Source of the DNA: Escherichia phage UP19
Direction: 5' to 3' (one strand)
Sequence record: OX638288
Length of the DNA stretch: 64,000 nucleotides
Part shown: piece after piece, positions 7,843 through 13,582 of the stretch
Layout: each line of letters opens with the position of its first letter
Position numbering within the stretch: the first letter of the stretch is position 1
Translations under genes and position numbers: made by a program
Notes under the pieces: model-generated
The model's input: only the letters and a program-made list of their open reading frames with translations
The model's database searches: none
What the model was told of the DNA's origin: nothing

Positions 7843-8166
7843 ATGGAACTTCCTATTAAAGCGGTCGGAGAATATGTTATTCTCGTTTCCGAACCAAAAC
7901 AAGCTGGTGATGAAGAAACTACTGCATCTGGTATCGTTATTGGCAAACTTCATCAAGGTGAAATCCCTGAACTTTGTGAAATTTATTCTGTAGGACCTGA
8001 TGTCCCTGAAGGTTTTTGTGAAGTAGGTGATTTGACTCCACTTCCTGTTGGTAAGATTGCTAACGTGCCCCATCCGTTGGTTGCATTGGGTATTAAACAG
8101 CCTAAAGAAATTAAACAGAAATTCGTTACCTGTCACTATAAAGCTATTCCGTGTCTTTATAAGTGA
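7843..8166 (+). CDS. 31: GroES-like co-chaperonin for major capsid protein folding (gp31)
   Basis: 107 aa; ..[18 protein letters not shown].. and C-terminal ..[17 protein letters not shown] matching T4 gp31. Confidence 0.9.
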
Positions 8167-8174
8167 TATAAATA
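8167..8174 (+). promoter_or_regulatory. late promoter motif TATAAATA upstream of rIII
   Basis: Exact TATAAATA immediately after gene 31 stop. Confidence 0.45.
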
Positions 8175-8312
8175 ATAATATGGATTGGCTGCCGGACTAG
8201 TTAGTTAACCGGAGAATCCTAAGCGGTGGACTACAACTGAGAGACTTGCCGAAAGGAAGTGAAATTCAGAAGAACGTGTCCACCAATCTTTATCTCGAAT
8301 CGAGAATTTAAA

Positions 8313-8561
8313 ATGAACAAACATCTGAATCACGCTCTTGAACTGCAACGCAACGCTTGGAACAACGGTCACGAAAACTACGGCGCATCTATTGATGTTG
8401 AAGCCGAAGCACTGGAAATCCTGCGTTATTTCAAACATCTTAATCCGGCTCAGGCTACTCTGGCTGCTGAACTGGAAGCAAAAGATGAACTGAAATATGC
8501 TAAGCCTTTGGCTTCAGCAGCTCGTAAAGCAGTACGTCATTTTATTATTACCCTGAAGTAA
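8313..8561 (+). CDS. rIII: RIII lysis-inhibition accessory protein
   Basis: 82 aa from ATG 8313 (MNKHLNH..ELQRNAWNNGHENYGASIDVEAEALEILRYFKHL..) matching T4 RIII. Confidence 0.85.
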   Translation: MNKHLNHALELQRNAWNNGHENYGASIDVEAEALEILRYFKHLNPAQATLAAELEAKDELKYAKPLASAARKAVRHFIITLK

Positions 8562-8913
8562 AATCGAGGAGCCGTCGAACTGTCTGATTAATGATTTGCG
8601 AATCATTATAGTTTTAAGACCCCAGCAGTTTTACGGTGTACCTCTTGAATGTATTTTATAGCGGCAAGTGCATGCTACCCCGAGGTGATGGCCAATCGGG
8701 AGTACGCCTCAAGGCCTATATATCCATCAGTATATATCTTATCCTCGAGAAATCGAACCCGGAACCTTTAAGCTAACGGTGTGCAACAGATAAGAGCTAT
8801 GATGACGAGGTTTACGGTTATCCTGTCGTTAAATATCTAAAACCTATGTTCCCCTTGAGGGCTTGCGCAGGCAATGTCAATAAGTCCTGCATCCTAATTT
8901 AAGAGATTTAAAA
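8562..8913. other. 352-nt ORF-free region with several stem-loops; candidate structured RNA, regulatory region or decayed gene
   Basis: No ORF of 60 aa or more on either strand and frequent stops in all frames; largest non-coding gap in the window. Confidence 0.4.
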
Positions 8914-9075
8914 ATGGCTAAGAAAGAAGTTAAAGTAGTTGACGGAACCTCTAAACGCGCTGGTTACAAGCGTGCGTCTAACAAGCGTATCAATCAGGTA
9001 GTTGATAAGCTTCAAGCTCGTGCTCGTGCAGTATTGCGTGCAGATGCTGCTTGCTTCGGTAAAGTTATTGCATAA
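8914..9075 (+). CDS. hypothetical small basic protein (53 aa)
   Basis: ATG 8914, stop 9073-9075, immediately followed by a strong intrinsic terminator. Confidence 0.45.
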   Translation: MAKKEVKVVDGTSKRAGYKRASNKRINQVVDKLQARARAVLRADAACFGKVIA

Positions 9076-9080
9076 GTTAT

Positions 9081-9104
9081 GGGACTCTTCGGAGTCCCAT
9101 TTTT
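9081..9104 (+). terminator. rho-independent terminator (GGGACTC-TTCG-GAGTCCC + T-run)
   Basis: 7-bp perfect stem, TTCG loop, TTTTT at 9100-9104. Confidence 0.8.
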
Positions 9105-9129
9105 GTTTCTAAATCTTTAAAAAAAAAGG

Positions 9130-9161
9130 GTATACATCTCCGGTAGGCATGATACTATAGA
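9130..9161 (+). promoter_or_regulatory. early promoter-like element (GTATAC -35-like, TACTAT/TATAGA -10) preceded by an A-tract; cassette A
   Basis: A9 tract then GGTATACA..17 nt..TACTATAGA. Confidence 0.45.
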
Positions 9162-9202
9162 CATGTACCAAATAATACGAAAACAAACTGGAGAATAAAA
9201 TG
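9158..9202 (+). repeat. 45-nt leader repeat copy A (TAGACATGTACCAAATAATACGAAAACAAACTGGAGAATAAAATG)
   Basis: 44/45 identical to 9564-9608; ends in start codon of ORF 9200. Confidence 0.9.
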
Positions 9203-9532
9203 AAAACTGTAAACCTGAATGCATCTGTTAAAGCTAAATGTTTCAACGGTGAATATCAAGAAACCATGTGGGTCCTGACTGCAGTTGAAGGTGATATCAT
9301 CGAAGTTGAAACAACTGAAGGTATGGGTACTGATTTCACATTTACCATCGAGCTTCACAACTTCTTTACAGGTTGGATTTATGAACTGAAAACTGTAATT
9401 ACTGGTCGTATCGAAGAAAACAAAATTGGTGAATTCTATTACGTTAATGCCCGTACACGTGCTGAACGTCTGATTGCTCAGATGAAAAAAGTTGGTAAAC
9501 TTGATATGAAAAATTGGAATGTTGTGAAATAA
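9200..9532 (+). CDS. hypothetical protein
   Basis: 110-aa ORF behind leader copy A. Confidence 0.55.
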   Translation: MKTVNLNASVKAKCFNGEYQETMWVLTAVEGDIIEVETTEGMGTDFTFTIELHNFFTGWIYELKTVITGRIEENKIGEFYYVNARTRAERLIAQMKKVGKLDMKNWNVVK

Positions 9533-9535
9533 ATG

Positions 9536-9576
9536 TTTTACTTTGGTACAGGTTGTGTTATTATAGACCTGTACCA
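9536..9576 (+). promoter_or_regulatory. early promoter-like element (TTTTAC 9536-9541, TATTAT 9559-9564) with its -10 in the loop of an 8-bp inverted repeat (GGTACAGG 9546-9553 / CCTGTACC 9569-9576); cassette B
   Basis: Seen directly. Confidence 0.45.
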
Positions 9577-9608
9577 AATAATACGAAAACAAACTGGAGA
9601 ATAAAATG
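9564..9608 (+). repeat. 45-nt leader repeat copy B
   Basis: 44/45 identical to 9158-9202; ends in start codon of ORF 9606. Confidence 0.9.
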
Positions 9609-9971
9609 AACTACATCAACTTCGAACGTAAATATGTTTCTAACGGTAACGCTGGTTCTTCTGAAGTTATTTGTCTGTGGAAACACAACAACGGCACAGT
9701 GTGCGAAATCGAACAGTGCATGACTCCTAACTACGTTTATATGCGCTTTGAAAATGGTATCACGGTTTCAATCACTATGGAAGGTTCTACTTTTAAAATC
9801 GCTTTGGATGATGATTTCCGTCAACGTGATTTAGGCACCCATCCTTGCTGGAACGGTGATAATCGTAAGCTTCTGGTTAAAACCTGGATTCGTCACATCC
9901 TGAGCAACCGTGCTAAACCTGAACACCTGGAAGCAATCTTTGTTGTAGTTCTGAATGAATTTGATATCTAA
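9606..9971 (+). CDS. hypothetical protein
   Basis: 121-aa ORF behind leader copy B; unrelated in sequence to ORF 9200. Confidence 0.55.
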   Translation: MNYINFERKYVSNGNAGSSEVICLWKHNNGTVCEIEQCMTPNYVYMRFENGITVSITMEGSTFKIALDDDFRQRDLGTHPCWNGDNRKLLVKTWIRHILSNRAKPEHLEAIFVVVLNEFDI

Positions 9972-9981
9972 TCTTAAAAAT

Positions 9982-10000
9982 GGAGGCTTCGGCCTCCTTT
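9982..10000 (+). terminator. stem-loop GGAGGC-TTCG-GCCTCC + TTT (terminator or attenuator)
   Basis: 6-bp GC stem with TTCG loop right after stop of ORF 9606. Confidence 0.6.
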
Positions 10001-10012
10001 GAGGAAAATATT

Positions 10013-10300
10013 ATGTTTATGACCACTTATTTCGATACTCGTAAAAATTTCTGTGAAGTTGTTTTCTCTAAGGCAGGTAAAGATGTTCCTGCTGACAAAC
10101 AGCCTACTCGTGAATCCATTAAGGCCTATGCTGATGTGGTTTGTCCAGTAGAATTCCGTACAGTCAATGGTCGTGACACCCTAGCAATCACTAAGCTCAA
10201 CCGCGATATTAACATCGACCCAAGTGTCGCCCGCGAAGTCAATACTTCTGACATCTACGGCGGTAATGTTAAATCACATGGATTTCAGATGAGGTTCTAA
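10013..10300 (+). CDS. hypothetical protein
   Basis: 95-aa ORF from ATG 10013 with SD GAGG; the track's earlier start at 9980 lies inside the terminator hairpin. Confidence 0.5.
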   Translation: MFMTTYFDTRKNFCEVVFSKAGKDVPADKQPTRESIKAYADVVCPVEFRTVNGRDTLAITKLNRDINIDPSVAREVNTSDIYGGNVKSHGFQMRF

Positions 10301-10494
10301 TGCAACTATTCTTATCACAAACCGTTCAGTTAAAAGGTATAGGTATTCCTGGTATGATTTCAAAGGTTCTACCTGCTTTTAAAATTAACGGTAAAGTAAT
10401 TAAAGAAGCCTATGCAGTCCTGTGGGTCGACGGAACTGAAGACGTGCGCATGGGTTCTGAATTGTCTGTAATCAAATGTTTGAAGCGAGGATAA
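10300..10494 (+). CDS. hypothetical protein
   Basis: 64-aa ORF, coupled. Confidence 0.4.
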   Translation: MQLFLSQTVQLKGIGIPGMISKVLPAFKINGKVIKEAYAVLWVDGTEDVRMGSELSVIKCLKRG

Positions 10495-10495
10495 T

Positions 10496-10711
10496 ATGGT
10501 CAAGAAACTGATTCAGAAATTGTTAGGTACGGAAATGGTTGAAGTGACTTATCGTGTGACTGATGTTTCTCCTCATACGGCGGACCATTTAGAACCTTAT
10601 ATCATGACAATTAAAATGCCTAAACATGACGGTGGTTTATCCATTGAAGACCGACTGCCTGGTTATGGTTATTGGGCTGATGTCGAAATTATAAGTGTCA
10701 AAGATGTCTGA
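10496..10711 (+). CDS. hypothetical protein
   Basis: 71-aa ORF. Confidence 0.4.
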   Translation: MVKKLIQKLLGTEMVEVTYRVTDVSPHTADHLEPYIMTIKMPKHDGGLSIEDRLPGYGYWADVEIISVKDV

Positions 10712-11162
10712 GTTAGAAATTAGAAGTAACTTTCCGTGGCCATCATGCGCATTAAGTAACTTTGCTAAATGGCCATTCGTTATGGATGGTATCCAATTTG
10801 GTGGACTCGAAGGATTCCTCCAAGGGTGTAAGGTGAAAAATGTTGAACAACAAAGACGTATATTTAGGATGTCCGGGTTAGACGCGCAAAAAGCTGGACG
10901 AGCTTATGCTAGGGCTCAGGACCGTGGCACGTTGTTCTGGCTTGGGACCCCGTTTTCAAGATATTCCGAAGCATGGAAAGAGCTTTACGAAAGTGCGTAT
11001 TTTGAAGCAGCACTCCAGAACAAAGGATTCCGAGAAGCTTTACAAGCCACTAAAGGTAAGGTTTTAAAGCATTCAATGGCAAGCCACCTCAAAGAATGTG
11101 ATACAATACTAACTGAAAAAGAGTTTATCGACATCCTAAACAAATTGAGAGATTTATTATGA
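10695..11162 (+). CDS. NADAR / YbiA-like (DUF1768) domain protein; putative ADP-ribose or N-glycoside hydrolase
   Basis: 155 aa; motif ..LSNFAKWPFVMDGIQFGGLEGFLQGCK.. resembles the YbiA/NADAR signature (FSNFxxWP...SEHyFQAxK) as I recall it; no profile search run. Confidence 0.45.
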   Translation: MSKMSELEIRSNFPWPSCALSNFAKWPFVMDGIQFGGLEGFLQGCKVKNVEQQRRIFRMSGLDAQKAGRAYARAQDRGTLFWLGTPFSRYSEAWKELYESAYFEAALQNKGFREALQATKGKVLKHSMASHLKECDTILTEKEFIDILNKLRDLL

Positions 11163-11797
11163 AACCAGTTATCTTAACAGATATCGATGGAGTATGTTTA
11201 AGTTGGCAGTCCGGCTTGCCTTATTTCGCACAGAAATATAATTTGCCTTTAGAACATATTTTGAATATGATTCAGGACGAACGTTTCTTATCTCCAGGCG
11301 AACTGTTTAATTGTGACGACGAATTAGGCGCACGTTTAATCGAGAAATATAACCAGTCAGATTTTATTCGTTATCTGTCACCTTACATGGACGCATTAAA
11401 ACACATCAACAAGCTCAAAAAAGACTTCGATTTTGTAGCTGTGACTGCGCTAGGTGACTCAATCGATGCTCTGCTGAATAGACAATTCAATTTGAATGCT
11501 TTGTTCCCTGGCGCATTCAAGGAGATTCTGATGTGTGGTCATTCAGAATCAAAAGAAGACCTGTTCATAAGAGCTAAAAATACGTACGGCAAACGCATTA
11601 AGTTTTATGTTGATGATTTGGCCCACCACTGTGATGCCGCATCTAATATTCTCATGGATATCCAAGTCTATTGGTTAGCCCGTGGTGAACGCGACTTTAA
11701 ACCTAATTTAGCTGTAAAGGTTAATTCATGGGACGATATTGCAGCTATAGAATCCCTTCGTAATAATGCGGCCGTTGAATGGATTGCACGAGGTTAA
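11159..11797 (+). CDS. HAD-superfamily hydrolase (phosphatase/nucleotidase-like)
   Basis: 212 aa; N-terminal HAD motif I ..ILTDIDGV..; C-terminal acidic ..YVDD..; ATGA-coupled to the NADAR-like ORF. Confidence 0.55.
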   Translation: MKPVILTDIDGVCLSWQSGLPYFAQKYNLPLEHILNMIQDERFLSPGELFNCDDELGARLIEKYNQSDFIRYLSPYMDALKHINKLKKDFDFVAVTALGDSIDALLNRQFNLNALFPGAFKEILMCGHSESKEDLFIRAKNTYGKRIKFYVDDLAHHCDAASNILMDIQVYWLARGERDFKPNLAVKVNSWDDIAAIESLRNNAAVEWIARG

Positions 11798-11798
11798 T

Positions 11799-12062
11799 AT
11801 GTTTGTTGTTCATACAATTACTGACGGAACCCCTAAATCCCATGATTACGGAAACGTTAGACAATTCCTTCGATTGAACCCTGTATATTTCCAAGCCAAA
11901 GATGAAGATATCTTTATCCAATGTGTTCGGCGTGGATTTATGTATGTTACTGAATATGATATTAAAGATAAGCGTATTATTTCGTATCACAAAACTTTAA
12001 ATGAGCTTTTAGATGAAGTAGCTTATAATAGAAGTACACAAACTGTAAGGACGGTAAAATGA
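11799..12062 (+). CDS. hypothetical protein
   Basis: 87-aa ORF from ATG 11799 with SD GAGG. Confidence 0.45.
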   Translation: MFVVHTITDGTPKSHDYGNVRQFLRLNPVYFQAKDEDIFIQCVRRGFMYVTEYDIKDKRIISYHKTLNELLDEVAYNRSTQTVRTVK

Positions 12063-13582
12063 TTTTAGATATTTTGAACGAAATTGCGGCTATCGATTCT
12101 ACTAAAGCTAAAGAAGCTATTATTGCTCGTGAAAAGGATAACGAGCTTCTGAAACGTGTTTATCGTATGGCTTATACTCGTCGTCTGAACTACGGTATTA
12201 AAAAGTGGCCAGAACCTGGATTTACGTCTCAATCCTTTGGTATGATTACACTTGAAGACCTTCTTGATTTCGCTGAGTTCACACTAGCCACCCGTAAGAT
12301 TACAGGTAATGCGGCTATTGAAGAACTTGCCCAAATTATTGCAGATGCTAAGGGTCCAGACGCTGAGGTACTACGTCGTGTAATGATGCGCGACCTTGAA
12401 TGTGGCGCATCGATTTCTATTGCTAACAAGGTTTGGAAAGGTTTAATCCCTGAACAACCTCAAATGTTGGCTAGTTCTTATGACGAAGCTTTGATTAAGA
12501 AAAATATTAAATGGCCTGCGTTCGCCCAATTAAAAGCTGACGGTGCCCGTTGTTTTGCTGAAGTTCGTAACGATGGCGTAACATTCCTTACTCGTGGTGG
12601 TAATGAATACCAAGGGCTTAATCTTTTGGCTGCTGAATTAATGGCTATGACCGAAGAAGCTAGACAGCGCCATCCTAATGGTGTTATGATTGACGGCGAA
12701 TTAGTTTACCACACTCCTAAAGTAGAACCTAAAGCGTCTAATGATTTGTTTAGTATGTTTGATGAGGAACTTCCTGAATTAAGTAAAGCCAAGGAATTCC
12801 AAACTGTCGCCGATCGTTCTACTTCAAACGGGCTAGCTAACAAGGCTCTTCAAGGAACTATTACTCCAACCGAAGCCGCAGGTATGGTATTACAGGCGTG
12901 GGATTATGTCCCATTGGATGTCGTATATTCCGAAGGTAAAATTAAAGGCGATAAGTATGATGTACGCTTTGCAGCCTTAGAACTTATGGTTGCTCATAAT
13001 GTCGTATTGCATGGTACAACTCGTGTTGAAGCTATCGAAAACCAGTGGGTTAATAATCTTGACGAAGCTAAAGTCGTTTATAAGAAATATGTCGACCAAG
13101 GCCTGGAAGGTATTATCCTTAAGAACATGGACTCCTACTGGGAAAACCGCCGTTCTAAGAATCTTATCAAGTTCAAAGAAGTAATCGATATCGCTTTAGA
13201 AGTGGTAGGTTATTATGAACACTCTAAAGACCCAAACAAACTTGGTGGTGTCGAGCTAGTATCGCGGTGTCGTCGAATTACATCTGATTGTGGTTCAGGC
13301 TTTAAAGATACCACCCATAAGAAAGATAAATCAGGTAAAAAGGTATTGATTCCATTAGAAGACCGCCCTGATTTAGACCGTGAACTTCTTATGAAACAAG
13401 CTCGTGAAGGTAAGTTGATTGGACGTATTGCTGACTGTGAATGTAATGGTTGGGTTCATTCTAAAGGACGTACTGATACTGTAGGTATTTTCCTTCCAAT
13501 TATTAAAGGTTGGCGTTTCGATAAAACTGAAGCTGATACATTTGAAGATGTATTTAGTGATTGGTCTCAAACTGGACTATAA
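12059..13582 (+). CDS. 30: ATP-dependent DNA ligase (gene 30)
   Basis: 507 aa; N-terminus MILDILNEIAAIDSTKAKEAII..; ligase motif I ..LKADGAR..; matches T4 gp30. Confidence 0.95.
   Translation: MILDILNEIAAIDSTKAKEAIIAREKDNELLKRVYRMAYTRRLNYGIKKWPEPGFTSQSFGMITLEDLLDFAEFTLATRKITGNAAIEELAQIIADAKGPDAEVLRRVMMRDLECGASISIANKVWKGLIPEQPQMLASSYDEALIKKNIKWPAFAQLKADGARCFAEVRNDGVTFLTRGGNEYQGLNLLAAELMAMTEEARQRHPNGVMIDGELVYHTPKVEPKASNDLFSMFDEELPELSKAKEFQTVADRSTSNGLANKALQGTITPTEAAGMVLQAWDYVPLDVVYSEGKIKGDKYDVRFAALELMVAHNVVLHGTTRVEAIENQWVNNLDEAKVVYKKYVDQGLEGIILKNMDSYWENRRSKNLIKFKEVIDIALEVVGYYEHSKDPNKLGGVELVSRCRRITSDCGSGFKDTTHKKDKSGKKVLIPLEDRPDLDRELLMKQAREGKLIGRIADCECNGWVHSKGRTDTVGIFLPIIKGWRFDKTEADTFEDVFSDWSQTGL

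Follow-up and report, generated by a model that had tools for sequence, protein, structure and literature searches.

We analysed a window of 64,000 nucleotides from Escherichia phage UP19 (sequence record OX638288), in which five ORFs of 110, 121, 95, 64 and 71 aa lie on the same strand at 9200-10711, exactly as a first-pass annotation had placed and sized them. The source phage is a Dhakavirus of the JS98/MN04 kind, and the DNA of the region is 98% identical to that of MN04 and JS98. The first-pass annotation had seen no recognisable family in the block. This view does not hold, and by comparison with T4 the five ORFs can be identified as genuine, conserved orthologues of the early genes 30.8, 30.7, 30.6, 30.5 and 30.4:

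9200-9532, plus strand: gene 30.8, 110 aa, short allele class; PF06019, PHROG 1507 and T4 orthology
9606-9971, plus strand: gene 30.7, 121 aa; PF06919, PHROG 1582 and T4 orthology
10013-10300, plus strand: gene 30.6, 95 aa, first cistron of the proposed operon; PHROG 2153 and T4 orthology
10300-10494, plus strand: gene 30.5, 64 aa, its start overlapping the stop of 30.6 (TAATG); PHROG 1690 and T4 orthology
10496-10711, plus strand: gene 30.4, 71 aa, its end overlapping the start of 30.3 by 8 nt; PHROG 2042 and T4 orthology

Every one of the five ORFs matches a PHROG family (E 1e-28 to 1e-63), and two of them match families in our local copy of Pfam. The 30.8 protein aligns with positions 1-124 of 124 of PF06019 (Phage_30_8) at 163.4 bits (E 2.8e-48; curated gathering cut-off, 25 bits) and with PHROG 1507 at E 2.6e-45, while 30.7 aligns with positions 1-118 of 118 of PF06919 (Phage_T4_Gp30_7) at 169.9 bits (E 2e-50; curated cut-off, 27 bits) and with PHROG 1582 at E 9e-63, so that both are members of these families; PF06919 is also the label carried by 24 of 24 database relatives of 30.7. 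The T4 gp30.6 family includes our 30.6, which occupies the syntenic position and matches PHROG 2153 over positions 1-95 of 95 (E 8e-49). Its link to Pfam PF26902, a family absent from the local copy, is through the precomputed labels on its relatives. Membership is likewise found for 30.5 in PHROG 1690 (E 8.6e-28), with the same TAATG overlap with 30.6 as in T4, and for 30.4 in PHROG 2042 (E 6.3e-35, positions 1-72 of 72). The JS98 annotation already names these ORFs 30.8 to 30.4 (ABX11139 to ABX11135). The cluster is thus an ordinary, annotated block, in which most protein functions are still without assignment.

In T4, genes 30.8 to 30.4 (AAD42449 to AAD42445) have the same order, strand and neighbours (rIII, 30.9 ... 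30.3, 30.2, 30.1, 30) as in the window and equal or nearly equal lengths, and the early promoters, hairpins and GGAG Shine-Dalgarno sequences of the T4 and JS98 blocks are common to the window. On the other hand, the spacer between rIII and 30.9 measures 352 nt in the window versus 244 nt in T4, and 30.2 encodes 212 aa versus 278 aa. Amino-acid identity to T4 is 78, 91, 84, 66 and 45% for 30.8, 30.7, 30.6, 30.5 and 30.4, respectively, which makes 30.7 the best conserved gene of the block, above gp31 (80%) and DNA ligase (63%). The corresponding dN/dS values, calculated with synonymous sites close to saturation, are 0.078, 0.061, 0.074, 0.16 and 0.27; all five are under purifying selection and are real genes. 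By tblastn, the genes of the block are present in 721-1039 phage records, compared with 1470 for gp31: 1039 for 30.8, 994 for 30.7, and 735 and 721, at full length, for 30.5 and 30.4. In GC content they do not depart from the genome average, and none of the proteins is predicted to span a membrane. All five T4 orthologues have been classed as 'early-RNA_early-Protein' (PMC9697503 supplements), and in a T4 CRISPRi-ART knock-down 30.4, 30.5, 30.7 and 30.8 were scored Not Fit (dispensable) and 30.6 'Semi-Fit' (PMC11879866 supplement). To judge by its title, a 2006 paper by Truncaite et al., cited in PMC9409239, already dealt with the transcription of exactly this region.

Searches beyond the phage families returned little. 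None of the five ORFs found a PDB chain below E 0.28 in sequence searches, profile searches with 30.7 and 30.6 against PDB chains found nothing, and PADLOC and NCBIfam gave zero hits. A word-indexed protein search with 30.8 returned two clusters only. With 30.5, an exhaustive phmmer search of 1.84 billion representatives left just four real clusters; two long repeat proteins in the same output were artefacts, namely a perfect tandem-repeat pseudo-protein and Ig repeats. The AF2 model of 30.7 (pLDDT 78, pTM 0.69) has seven beta strands and three helices, and apart from members of its own family nothing structurally similar to it turned up in PDB or BFVD; the model of 30.6 is poor (pLDDT 55). 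We considered a zinc-binding site in 30.7 (Cys23, Cys33, Cys91 and a His) and rejected it, because relatives carry L, A and S in place of the cysteines. Two elements upstream of the block had been passed over in the earlier reading, gene 30.9 at 8914-9075 and a conserved non-coding stretch of 352 nt between rIII and the block. A tRNA-like reading of this spacer was dropped because no tRNA was found in the window, and an Rfam search of 8000-12200 gave zero matches.

The expression signals of the block are concentrated around its first two genes:

9079-9110, plus strand: intrinsic terminator after 30.9, with a 9-bp stem (9079-9100, 5 GC pairs), a UUCG loop and the T-run tail TTTTTGTTTCT
9130-9158, plus strand: predicted T4-type early promoter of 30.8, with -35 GTATAC, a 17-nt spacer and -10 TACTAT
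9150-9204, plus strand: copy 1 of a 55-nt repeat, covering the -10 box, transcription start region, 5' leader, Shine-Dalgarno and ATG of 30.8
9190-9200, plus strand: candidate RegB/S1 site 1, perfect GGAGAAUAAAA, overlapping the Shine-Dalgarno of 30.8
9536-9564, plus strand: predicted T4-type early promoter of 30.7, with -35 (T)TTTAC and -10 TATTAT preceded by TG
9545-9575, plus strand: hairpin of the 30.7 promoter, 9 bp, GGTACAGGT / ACCTGTACC, with the -10 box in the loop
9556-9610, plus strand: copy 2 of the 55-nt repeat, upstream of 30.7
9596-9606, plus strand: candidate RegB/S1 site 2, perfect GGAGAAUAAAA, on the Shine-Dalgarno of 30.7
9982-9997, plus strand: GC hairpin after 30.7, with a UUCG loop and then only three T

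The terminator after 30.9 closes the upstream transcription unit, and a homologous hairpin stands at the same place in T4, VR5, IME08 and JS10. The 30.8 promoter has one mismatch to the early-promoter consensus GTTTAC-N17-TAYWAT, taken from PMC4122927, and the homologous position in T4 reads GTTTAC...TATTAT; the 30.7 promoter is conserved in T4, VR5, IME08 and teqdroes. Window-wide, the consensus is not enriched (4 matches versus 2.7 expected), nor are the sites of a generic sigma-70 scan (6 versus 11 expected). The two copies of the cassette, the only ones in the 64-kb window, form a direct repeat with 95% identity over 55 nt. Their 47-nt cores (9156-9202 and 9562-9608) show 0 mismatches to an N-containing pattern, differing only at the N position, and shuffles gave an expectation of 0 chance matches to this pattern. 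In T4, by contrast, the leaders of 30.8 and 30.7 differ from each other. The hairpin at 9545-9575 also folds in read-through RNA; at the same promoter T4 keeps GGTACAGG/CCTGTACC, and the -10 box of the T4 30.8 promoter is spanned by a different hairpin, TTTGTG/CACAAA. Since only three T follow its stem, the hairpin at 9982-9997 is probably an attenuator or an RNA-stabilising stem rather than a full terminator. T4 has another hairpin (GGGGCTTCAGCCCC) in its place, and the stem is absent from JS10, which is without 30.8 and 30.7.

This architecture matches the promoter-early stem-loop (PeSL) cassettes that Arbiol et al. 2010 (PMC2839356) and Comeau et al. 2014 (PMC4122927) described in T4-type phages. 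PeSLs are intergenic and consist of a sigma-70-like early promoter, a stem-loop able to overlap the -10 box, and a 3' Shine-Dalgarno with ATG; they are repeated beside non-essential ORFs and have been linked to deletion, insertion and replacement of the ORF they flank (PMC2839356, PMC4122927). We found the combination of early promoter, stem-loop and Shine-Dalgarno/ATG in repeated form at the two cassettes, whose promoter matches lie at 9130-9158 and 9536-9564, and also, among close relatives, the loss and replacement of flanked ORFs (the loss in JS10 and the swap of 30.8 alleles). The window holds two copies only, not a dense array, and they are PeSLs as judged from sequence. The PeSL definition also takes in promoter and terminator activity and the formation of mini-circles, followed with reporter fusions and inverse PCR in PMC2839356.

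The Shine-Dalgarno sequences of both cassettes coincide with candidate sites for the nuclease RegB. A search for the 11-nt RegB/S1 consensus GGAGRAYARAA (Durand et al. 2006, PMC1702504) gave only two matches in 64 kb, both exact GGAGAATAAAA, at 9190-9200 and 9596-9606. The predicted leaders are unstructured (MFE -0.7 and -2.3 kcal/mol) and leave the site unpaired, and thus both candidates combine the three features of a RegB/S1 target, an 11-nt site, single-stranded RNA and an early transcript. The T4 30.7 early mRNA is a validated RegB substrate, cut at the GGAG of its Shine-Dalgarno (Juskauskas et al. 2022, PMC9409239), and the RegB-controlled early mRNAs of T4 (motA, 30.7 and others) carry the 11-nt site on the Shine-Dalgarno of an early gene, as in the window. 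Cleavage has been demonstrated for T4 30.7, whereas the sites in the window are known from their sequence. There is no regB gene within the 64-kb window; among Dhakaviruses we confirmed a RegB homologue (59.5% identity) in one relative, IME281, and homologues occur in 1137 phage records.

The comparison with relatives shows where the region moves. Dhakavirus JS10 has no 30.8 and 30.7, with a breakpoint just past the -10 box and ~12 nt of unrelated sequence at the junction, which is not a clean cassette-to-cassette crossover, and VR5 has an extra 96-aa ORF in the region. In IME08, flanks with 96-98% identity enclose a 30.8 allele whose identity is 40%. There are two allele classes of 30.8, ~40% identical to each other and each common to Tequatrovirus and Dhakavirus; the long allele is 92% identical across the genera, while the flanks there are only 62% identical. 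Around 30.9 and 30.7, Tegunavirus, Karamvirus and Gelderlandvirus have other ORFs, and in Aeromonas phages homologues of 30.6 and 30.8 lie in other genome regions. The interval from rIII to gene 30 had been described as variable, and this holds between genera and, at the level of the cassettes, within Dhakavirus. The stronger word used for the block, hyperplastic, fits the cassettes, which move (JS10, VR5, the 30.8 alleles), but not the gene order, which is kept with T4, and the five genes themselves are not plastic novelties. The description of the ORFs as delimited by promoter cassettes and terminators can be retained for the first two, each with its own cassette, and for the strong terminator before the block; it fails for 30.6 to 30.3, which have no signals between them, and for the hairpin after 30.7 with its three T.

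The three remaining genes are organised differently. The start of 30.6 is the second in-frame ATG cluster of the 9980 ORF, and its Shine-Dalgarno is GAGGAAAATATTATG, likewise in T4. From there, 30.6, 30.5, 30.4 and 30.3 overlap or abut (TAATG, TAATATG and an overlap of 8 nt, the last also present in T4), and we found no promoter or terminator signals between them. We infer that 30.6-30.5-30.4-30.3-30.2-30.1-30 is a translationally coupled operon that reaches the DNA ligase gene 30. The neighbour 30.3 has PF08010 (Phage_30_3) as its sole Pfam match.

Overall, we think it quite probable that the block represents the T4 early cluster 30.8-30.7-30.6-30.5-30.4 in its Dhakavirus version, with regulation and function carried over from T4. 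In such a scheme 30.8 and 30.7 would form two monocistronic cassettes, each composed of an early promoter whose -10 box is spanned by a hairpin, of a leader free of structure and of a Shine-Dalgarno serving also as a RegB/S1 site. As both carry T4-type early promoters, they would be transcribed by the unmodified host RNA polymerase right after infection, by extension from T4 data. RegB together with ribosomal protein S1 would then cut inside the Shine-Dalgarno and inactivate the two mRNAs, as in T4, and the outcome would be a short burst of 30.8 and 30.7 protein. After the hairpin, 30.6, 30.5 and 30.4 would begin the series of overlapping coupled cistrons, followed by 30.3, 30.2, 30.1 and finally the ligase gene. 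The repeated promoter cassettes could double as recombination substrates through which whole ORFs are lost, gained or swapped, as JS10 and the 30.8 alleles suggest.

The products would be small, soluble, cytoplasmic and non-essential accessory proteins that bind host proteins. Among the five, a described partner is known for 30.5 only, from T4: in a single preprint, by co-immunoprecipitation and genetics, T4 30.5 co-purifies with the E. coli polyphosphate kinase Ppk and activates bNACHT11, and its deletion has a phenotype on bNACHT11 hosts (bioRxiv 10.1101/2024.12.17.629029). In the same work, bNACHT11 is triggered by small early proteins of T-even phages, each of which binds a host kinase: T2 gp6 binds CoaA, T2 gp57 GlpK and T4 30.5 Ppk. 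The 30.5 of the window is the orthologue of T4 30.5 and, like these trigger proteins, small, early and non-essential; it likely has Ppk as its partner, and would expose the phage to NLR defences of the bNACHT11 type. The two 30.5 proteins share only 66% identity, and Ppk binding and bNACHT11 recognition are predictions for the variant of the window. By analogy, binding of host proteins may extend to 30.8, 30.7, 30.6 and 30.4. Our literature search for gp30.x or 'gene 30.x' turned up only this preprint and the RIII/RegB paper, and a search for Ppk and T4 added nothing.

Other readings of the block were weighed against its identification with the T4 cluster. The two shortest ORFs (64 and 71 aa) might be chance frames or mere translational-coupling spacers, given their size, their position outside any broad family, the four real clusters of 30.5 and the 45% identity to T4 of 30.4, the least conserved of the five. 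We regard this as very improbable: their dN/dS values of 0.16 and 0.27 were obtained at saturated synonymous sites, both are found at full length in hundreds of phage records, the T4 proteins are detected early, and for T4 30.5 both a specific partner and, on bNACHT11 hosts, an effect of its deletion have been described. Names such as 'putative baseplate hub subunit' or 'head vertex protein', which some GenBank records give to homologues of 30.7 or 30.4, would make the ORFs virion or assembly components. They have no Pfam or PHROG support and go back to one phage annotation that was passed on by similarity, while the curators of JS98 and T4 label the proteins hypothetical; together with the early, not late, timing of the T4 orthologues at the RNA and protein level and the dispensability of the genes in T4, this renders a structural role scarcely credible.

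More serious is the reading that the block encodes counter-defence, with at least one of its proteins inactivating a bacterial immune system; the best candidates would be the dimorphic, horizontally exchanged 30.8 and the highly conserved 30.7. It agrees with the early expression of the T4 orthologues and their non-essentiality in a defence-poor laboratory host, with the conditional dispensability shown by the loss of the cassette in JS10, and with the 30.8 allele classes, ~40% identical and shared across genera, a pattern typical of arms-race genes; the restriction of neighbouring 30.3 to its PF08010 match also points this way. However, no described anti-defence protein came up as similar in sequence or fold in PDB, BFVD and profile searches, our literature searches brought up no paper on this role, and the sole experimental link to defence is the reverse one, the activation of bNACHT11 by 30.5. 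A dN/dS of ~0.07 for 30.7, 30.8 and 30.6, together with 91% identity across genera, fits a conserved host target better, and we consider counter-defence rather unlikely. The first-pass annotation had proposed host take-over or anti-defence functions for such a region. For anti-defence we found no evidence, 30.5 as a bNACHT11 trigger being the only link to defence; host take-over gains indirect support by analogy with T4, where the orthologues are early and dispensable and 30.5 binds Ppk. No homology to characterised housekeeping proteins emerged for any of the five, and the T4 orthologues are expressed.

Taking the block, then, as the Dhakavirus form of the T4 cluster, one further idea about 30.8 and 30.7 can be put forward tentatively, and we give it a low probability: they could be burst-expressed immediate-early effectors directed against host defence or a conserved host machine. 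It derives from the perfect RegB site, which no other gene in the 64 kb carries, from the dimorphism of 30.8 and its exchange between genera, and from the 91% conservation of 30.7, for whose model PDB and BFVD gave no match from another family. If true, both proteins would represent new families, of anti-defence or host shut-off, and the promoter cassettes would be the vehicle of their horizontal exchange.

As a finding, the block itself adds little, its genes having been named in T4 decades ago and annotated in JS98. What it offers is a compact list of conserved, early and dispensable T-even proteins that lack a target assignment, with two experimental handles: 30.5, by analogy a probable Ppk binder and trigger of an NLR-like defence, and the 30.8/30.7 pair, apparently under unusually strict RegB control, with exchange of the 30.8 cassette between genera. 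Their host partners, once found, would extend the emerging picture in which each small T-even early protein binds one host enzyme.

The block of five small ORFs is the T4 30.8-30.4 cluster. Nucleotides 8200-12100 of the window are 98% identical to the Escherichia phages MN04 and JS98 (Dhakavirus, Tevenvirinae) and, used as a query, matched 963 phage records. JS98 is annotated here as 31, rIII, 30.9, 30.8, 30.7, 30.6, 30.5, 30.4, 30.3, 30.2, 30.1 and 30 (DNA ligase), and T4 has exactly this gene order, with equal or nearly equal lengths. All five ORFs of the first-pass annotation are present, with the sizes and coordinates it gave.

Genes of the block, with amino acid identity to the T4 orthologue, dN/dS against T4 (synonymous sites near saturation) and number of phage records with tblastn matches among the 50,697 searched
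9200-9532, + strand: ORF1, gene 30.8, 110 aa; 78%; 0.078; 1039 records
9606-9971, + strand: ORF2, gene 30.7, 121 aa; 91%; 0.061; 994 records
10013-10300, + strand: ORF3, gene 30.6, 95 aa; 84%; 0.074; 806 records
10300-10494, + strand: ORF4, gene 30.5, 64 aa; 66%; 0.16; 735 records
10496-10711, + strand: ORF5, gene 30.4, 71 aa; 45%; 0.27; 721 records

It had been held that none of these ORFs belongs to a recognisable family, which proved wrong: ORF1 falls in Pfam PF06019 (Phage_30_8, 163 bits), ORF2 in PF06919 (Phage_T4_Gp30_7, 170 bits), relatives of ORF3 carry PF26902, and all five match PHROG families over their full length (E 1e-28 to 1e-63). By family membership, the ORFs are T4 30.8, 30.7, 30.6, 30.5 and 30.4. 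The underlying point, that their functions are uncharacterised, largely stands, the matched families all being 'function unknown'. Searching PDB by sequence and by profile, and searching PADLOC and NCBIfam, gave no matches for ORFs of the block. The five are genuine genes, with the T4 identities and dN/dS values listed above (dN/dS against T4 is 0.13 for gp31 and 0.16 for ligase, for comparison). They encode soluble proteins that lack any hydrophobic segment, and their GC content is that of the genome. The 30.6 start at 10013 (95 aa) is the correct choice over an upstream ATG at 9980: GAGGAAAATATT precedes it here and in T4, and the other ATG sits within a hairpin.

A strong intrinsic terminator (9079-9100 plus a T-run) follows 30.9, and a 55-nt direct repeat then occurs upstream of 30.8 (9150-9204) and of 30.7 (9556-9610). 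The two copies of its 47-nt core differ at one base, the N of our search pattern, which had zero occurrences in shuffled sequence. Each repeat is situated within a T4-type early promoter, comparable to the T4/PST cassette consensus TTTACW...TAYWAT (PMC4122927):

9130-9158, + strand: early promoter of 30.8, GTATAC-N17-TACTAT
9536-9564, + strand: early promoter of 30.7, TTTTAC-N17-TATTAT

Since neither this promoter pattern (4 matches in the window vs 2.7 expected) nor a generic sigma-70 scan showed enrichment, the argument relies on where the matches lie and on their conservation in T4, which has promoters at the homologous places. A 9-bp hairpin (GGTACAGGT / ACCTGTACC, 9545-9575) encloses the -10 box of the 30.7 promoter. 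T4 retains it, and at its 30.8 promoter has another hairpin that spans the -10 box. The layout upstream of 30.7 is that of published promoter-early stem-loop (PeSL) cassettes, in which a promoter and a stem-loop that can extend over the -10 box precede a Shine-Dalgarno and an ATG (PMC2839356). Downstream of 30.7, at 9982-9997, a GC hairpin with a UUCG loop is followed by no more than three T; the hairpin in this position in T4 is a different one. From 30.6 to ligase, successive cistrons either share bases or abut (TAATG, TAATATG, 8 nt shared with 30.3, and onward) with no signals between them. The block therefore consists of two early cassettes of one gene each, followed by the opening three cistrons of a coupled operon. 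The description of the block as delimited by promoter cassettes and terminators thus fits 30.8 and 30.7 and does not extend to five separately delimited units.

The Shine-Dalgarno region reads GGAGAATAAAATG in both 30.8 and 30.7. The 11 nt with which it begins make up the optimal site for the T4 endoribonuclease RegB in combination with S1, a ribosomal protein: GGAGAAUAAAA, or GGAGRAYARAA in degenerate form (PMC1702504). The degenerate form has two matches only in the 64-kb window, at 9190-9200 and 9596-9606, a rarity that may partly be owing to the window being mostly late or structural genes. Both leaders come out as unstructured in RNA folding predictions. RegB is known to cleave the T4 30.7 mRNA, at the GGAG of its Shine-Dalgarno (PMC9409239). 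The regB gene lies outside the window; a RegB homologue is present in the related Dhakavirus IME281 and in 1137 phage records. At the sequence level, the elements upstream of 30.8 and 30.7 qualify as PeSL cassettes and as RegB/S1 sites.

Upstream of the block, the rIII-30.9 non-coding spacer (8562-8913, 352 nt) is far more conserved than the adjoining coding DNA, with blocks of 89/91 and 107/119 nt identical to T4 and flanking genes differing at 52-67% of synonymous sites. T4 lacks a ~140-nt insertion present in Dhakaviruses (roughly 8652-8793), and the 3' block (ATGWTGACGAGGTT...GTTATCCTGTCGTTAAATATCC) is also retained in Karamvirus and Gelderlandvirus. A hairpin, GCAGG...CCTGC, shows by eye two compensatory changes in Gelderlandvirus; fold z-scores were modest (-1.3 and -2.6), RNAalifold support was weak and Rfam gave no match. 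The spacer may serve 30.9 as an operator or a structured leader, or it may encode a small RNA. Gene 30.9 itself (8914-9075), omitted from the first-pass annotation, encodes a very basic 53-aa protein (pI 10.8, 14 K+R), is flanked by this spacer and the region's strongest terminator, has 62% identity to T4 30.9 and was found in all genera examined.

The interval had also been called hyperplastic, which is partly right. It does vary between genera and, cassette-wise, within Dhakavirus, but the five genes are widespread and keep the T4 order (gp31, as a reference, matched 1470 phage records). T4 can do without 30.7 in the laboratory, yet the window's 30.7 is closer to its T4 orthologue than gp31, an essential co-chaperonin (80%), and DNA ligase (63%) are to theirs. 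Tegunavirus phiR1-RT retains rIII, 30.9 and 30.7, followed by unrelated ORFs, and Karamvirus and Gelderlandvirus carry other insertions. Aeromonas phages have 30.6 and 30.8 homologues in other genome regions, placements which show that these genes move between variable regions. In avDM14-QBC (L013 2498-2830) primase and dda flank the 30.8 homologue; in Aeromonas phage 25 (L009 2995-3782) the 30.6 homologue is directly 5' of a 'metal-dependent phosphohydrolase' of HD type, whose annotation notes similarity to a (p)ppGpp hydrolase, with a 'decoy of host sigma70' nearby. Within Dhakavirus, JS10 (L004 1179-1288) is without 30.8 and 30.7, its 30.8 promoter being joined just after the -10 box to the 30.6 ribosome-binding site via ~12 nt of unrelated sequence, and VR5 (L006 2356-2646) has an additional 96-aa ORF (MLEFTEGKWYCLPTSQ...) between 30.6 and 30.5.

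IME08 carries a 122-aa 30.8 allele only 40% identical to that of the window, between flanks 96-98% identical. Both classes, 110 aa (window 9200-9532) and 122 aa (loci L005 1205-1573 and L012 1195-1563), with ~40% mutual identity, occur in Dhakavirus and Tequatrovirus. IME08 and Tequatrovirus teqdroes have long alleles with 92% identity, and the window phage and T4 share the short one (78%). Since these identities cross genera while 30.9 tracks genus (62% between genera, 96-100% within), 30.8 is an old dimorphism whose long allele moved recently between genera, a pattern predicted by the PeSL shuffling model. The dimorphism and mobility of 30.8 point to counter-defence; no direct evidence for such a role was found, however, and we regard a counter-defence function of one or more of 30.8, 30.7, 30.6 and 30.4 as a less likely reading.

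Structural models were also built. For 30.7, AlphaFold2 gave seven antiparallel strands followed by three helices at moderate confidence (pLDDT 78, pTM 0.69). As Foldseek against PDB (best E 0.24) and BFVD (own-family members only) yielded no informative match, this fold offers no functional lead. In an alignment of 16 sequences its invariant residues include W25, H27, R72, R74, H79, P80 and W82; cysteines vary. The 30.6 model (pLDDT 55, residues 61-95 below 50) was too poor for use. Its N-terminal 20 residues are nearly invariant (MFMTTYFDTRKNFCEVVFSK), with a core motif VCPxEFRTVNGRDTL. The last 35 are of very low model confidence, yet end in a conserved G-F-x-x-[RK]-[FY]; speculatively, they may form a flexible tail that carries a docking motif. 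Some GenBank records name 30.7 and 30.4 homologues 'putative baseplate hub subunit' or 'head vertex protein', and one labels the 30.5 locus 'valyl-tRNA synthetase modifier / SLT domain'. Neither Pfam, PHROG nor expression timing supports these names, and we regard the virion-component ones as annotation artefacts.

All five T4 orthologues are of the early RNA and early protein class (PMC9697503 supplements). In a T4 dCas13d knock-down screen 30.4, 30.5, 30.7, 30.8 and 30.9 were 'Not Fit' and 30.6 'Semi-Fit' (score 0.72, p 0.067; PMC11879866 supplement). Among the five, an activity has been described only for T4 30.5, to which the window's protein is 66% identical and whose family is tiny (four real clusters in 1.84 billion representatives). 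T4 30.5 co-purifies with the polyphosphate kinase (Ppk) of E. coli, as confirmed by reciprocal co-immunoprecipitation. It also activates bNACHT11, a defence protein related to NLRs, and deleting 30.5 contributes to bNACHT11 escape; in the authors' proposal, small proteins of this sort reprogramme the metabolism of the host (bioRxiv 10.1101/2024.12.17.629029).

By extension from T4, the early promoters would drive a short burst of 30.8 and 30.7, which RegB/S1 cleavage of the Shine-Dalgarno would then silence, and 30.6, 30.5 and 30.4 would be expressed from read-through and upstream early transcription, within the operon to ligase. By analogy, the five proteins would be non-essential binders of host proteins, 30.5 targeting Ppk and simultaneously being a liability in bNACHT11 hosts. 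The block is ordinary and its identity already explained, with nothing new in kind; what it still offers is a shortlist of conserved early proteins.
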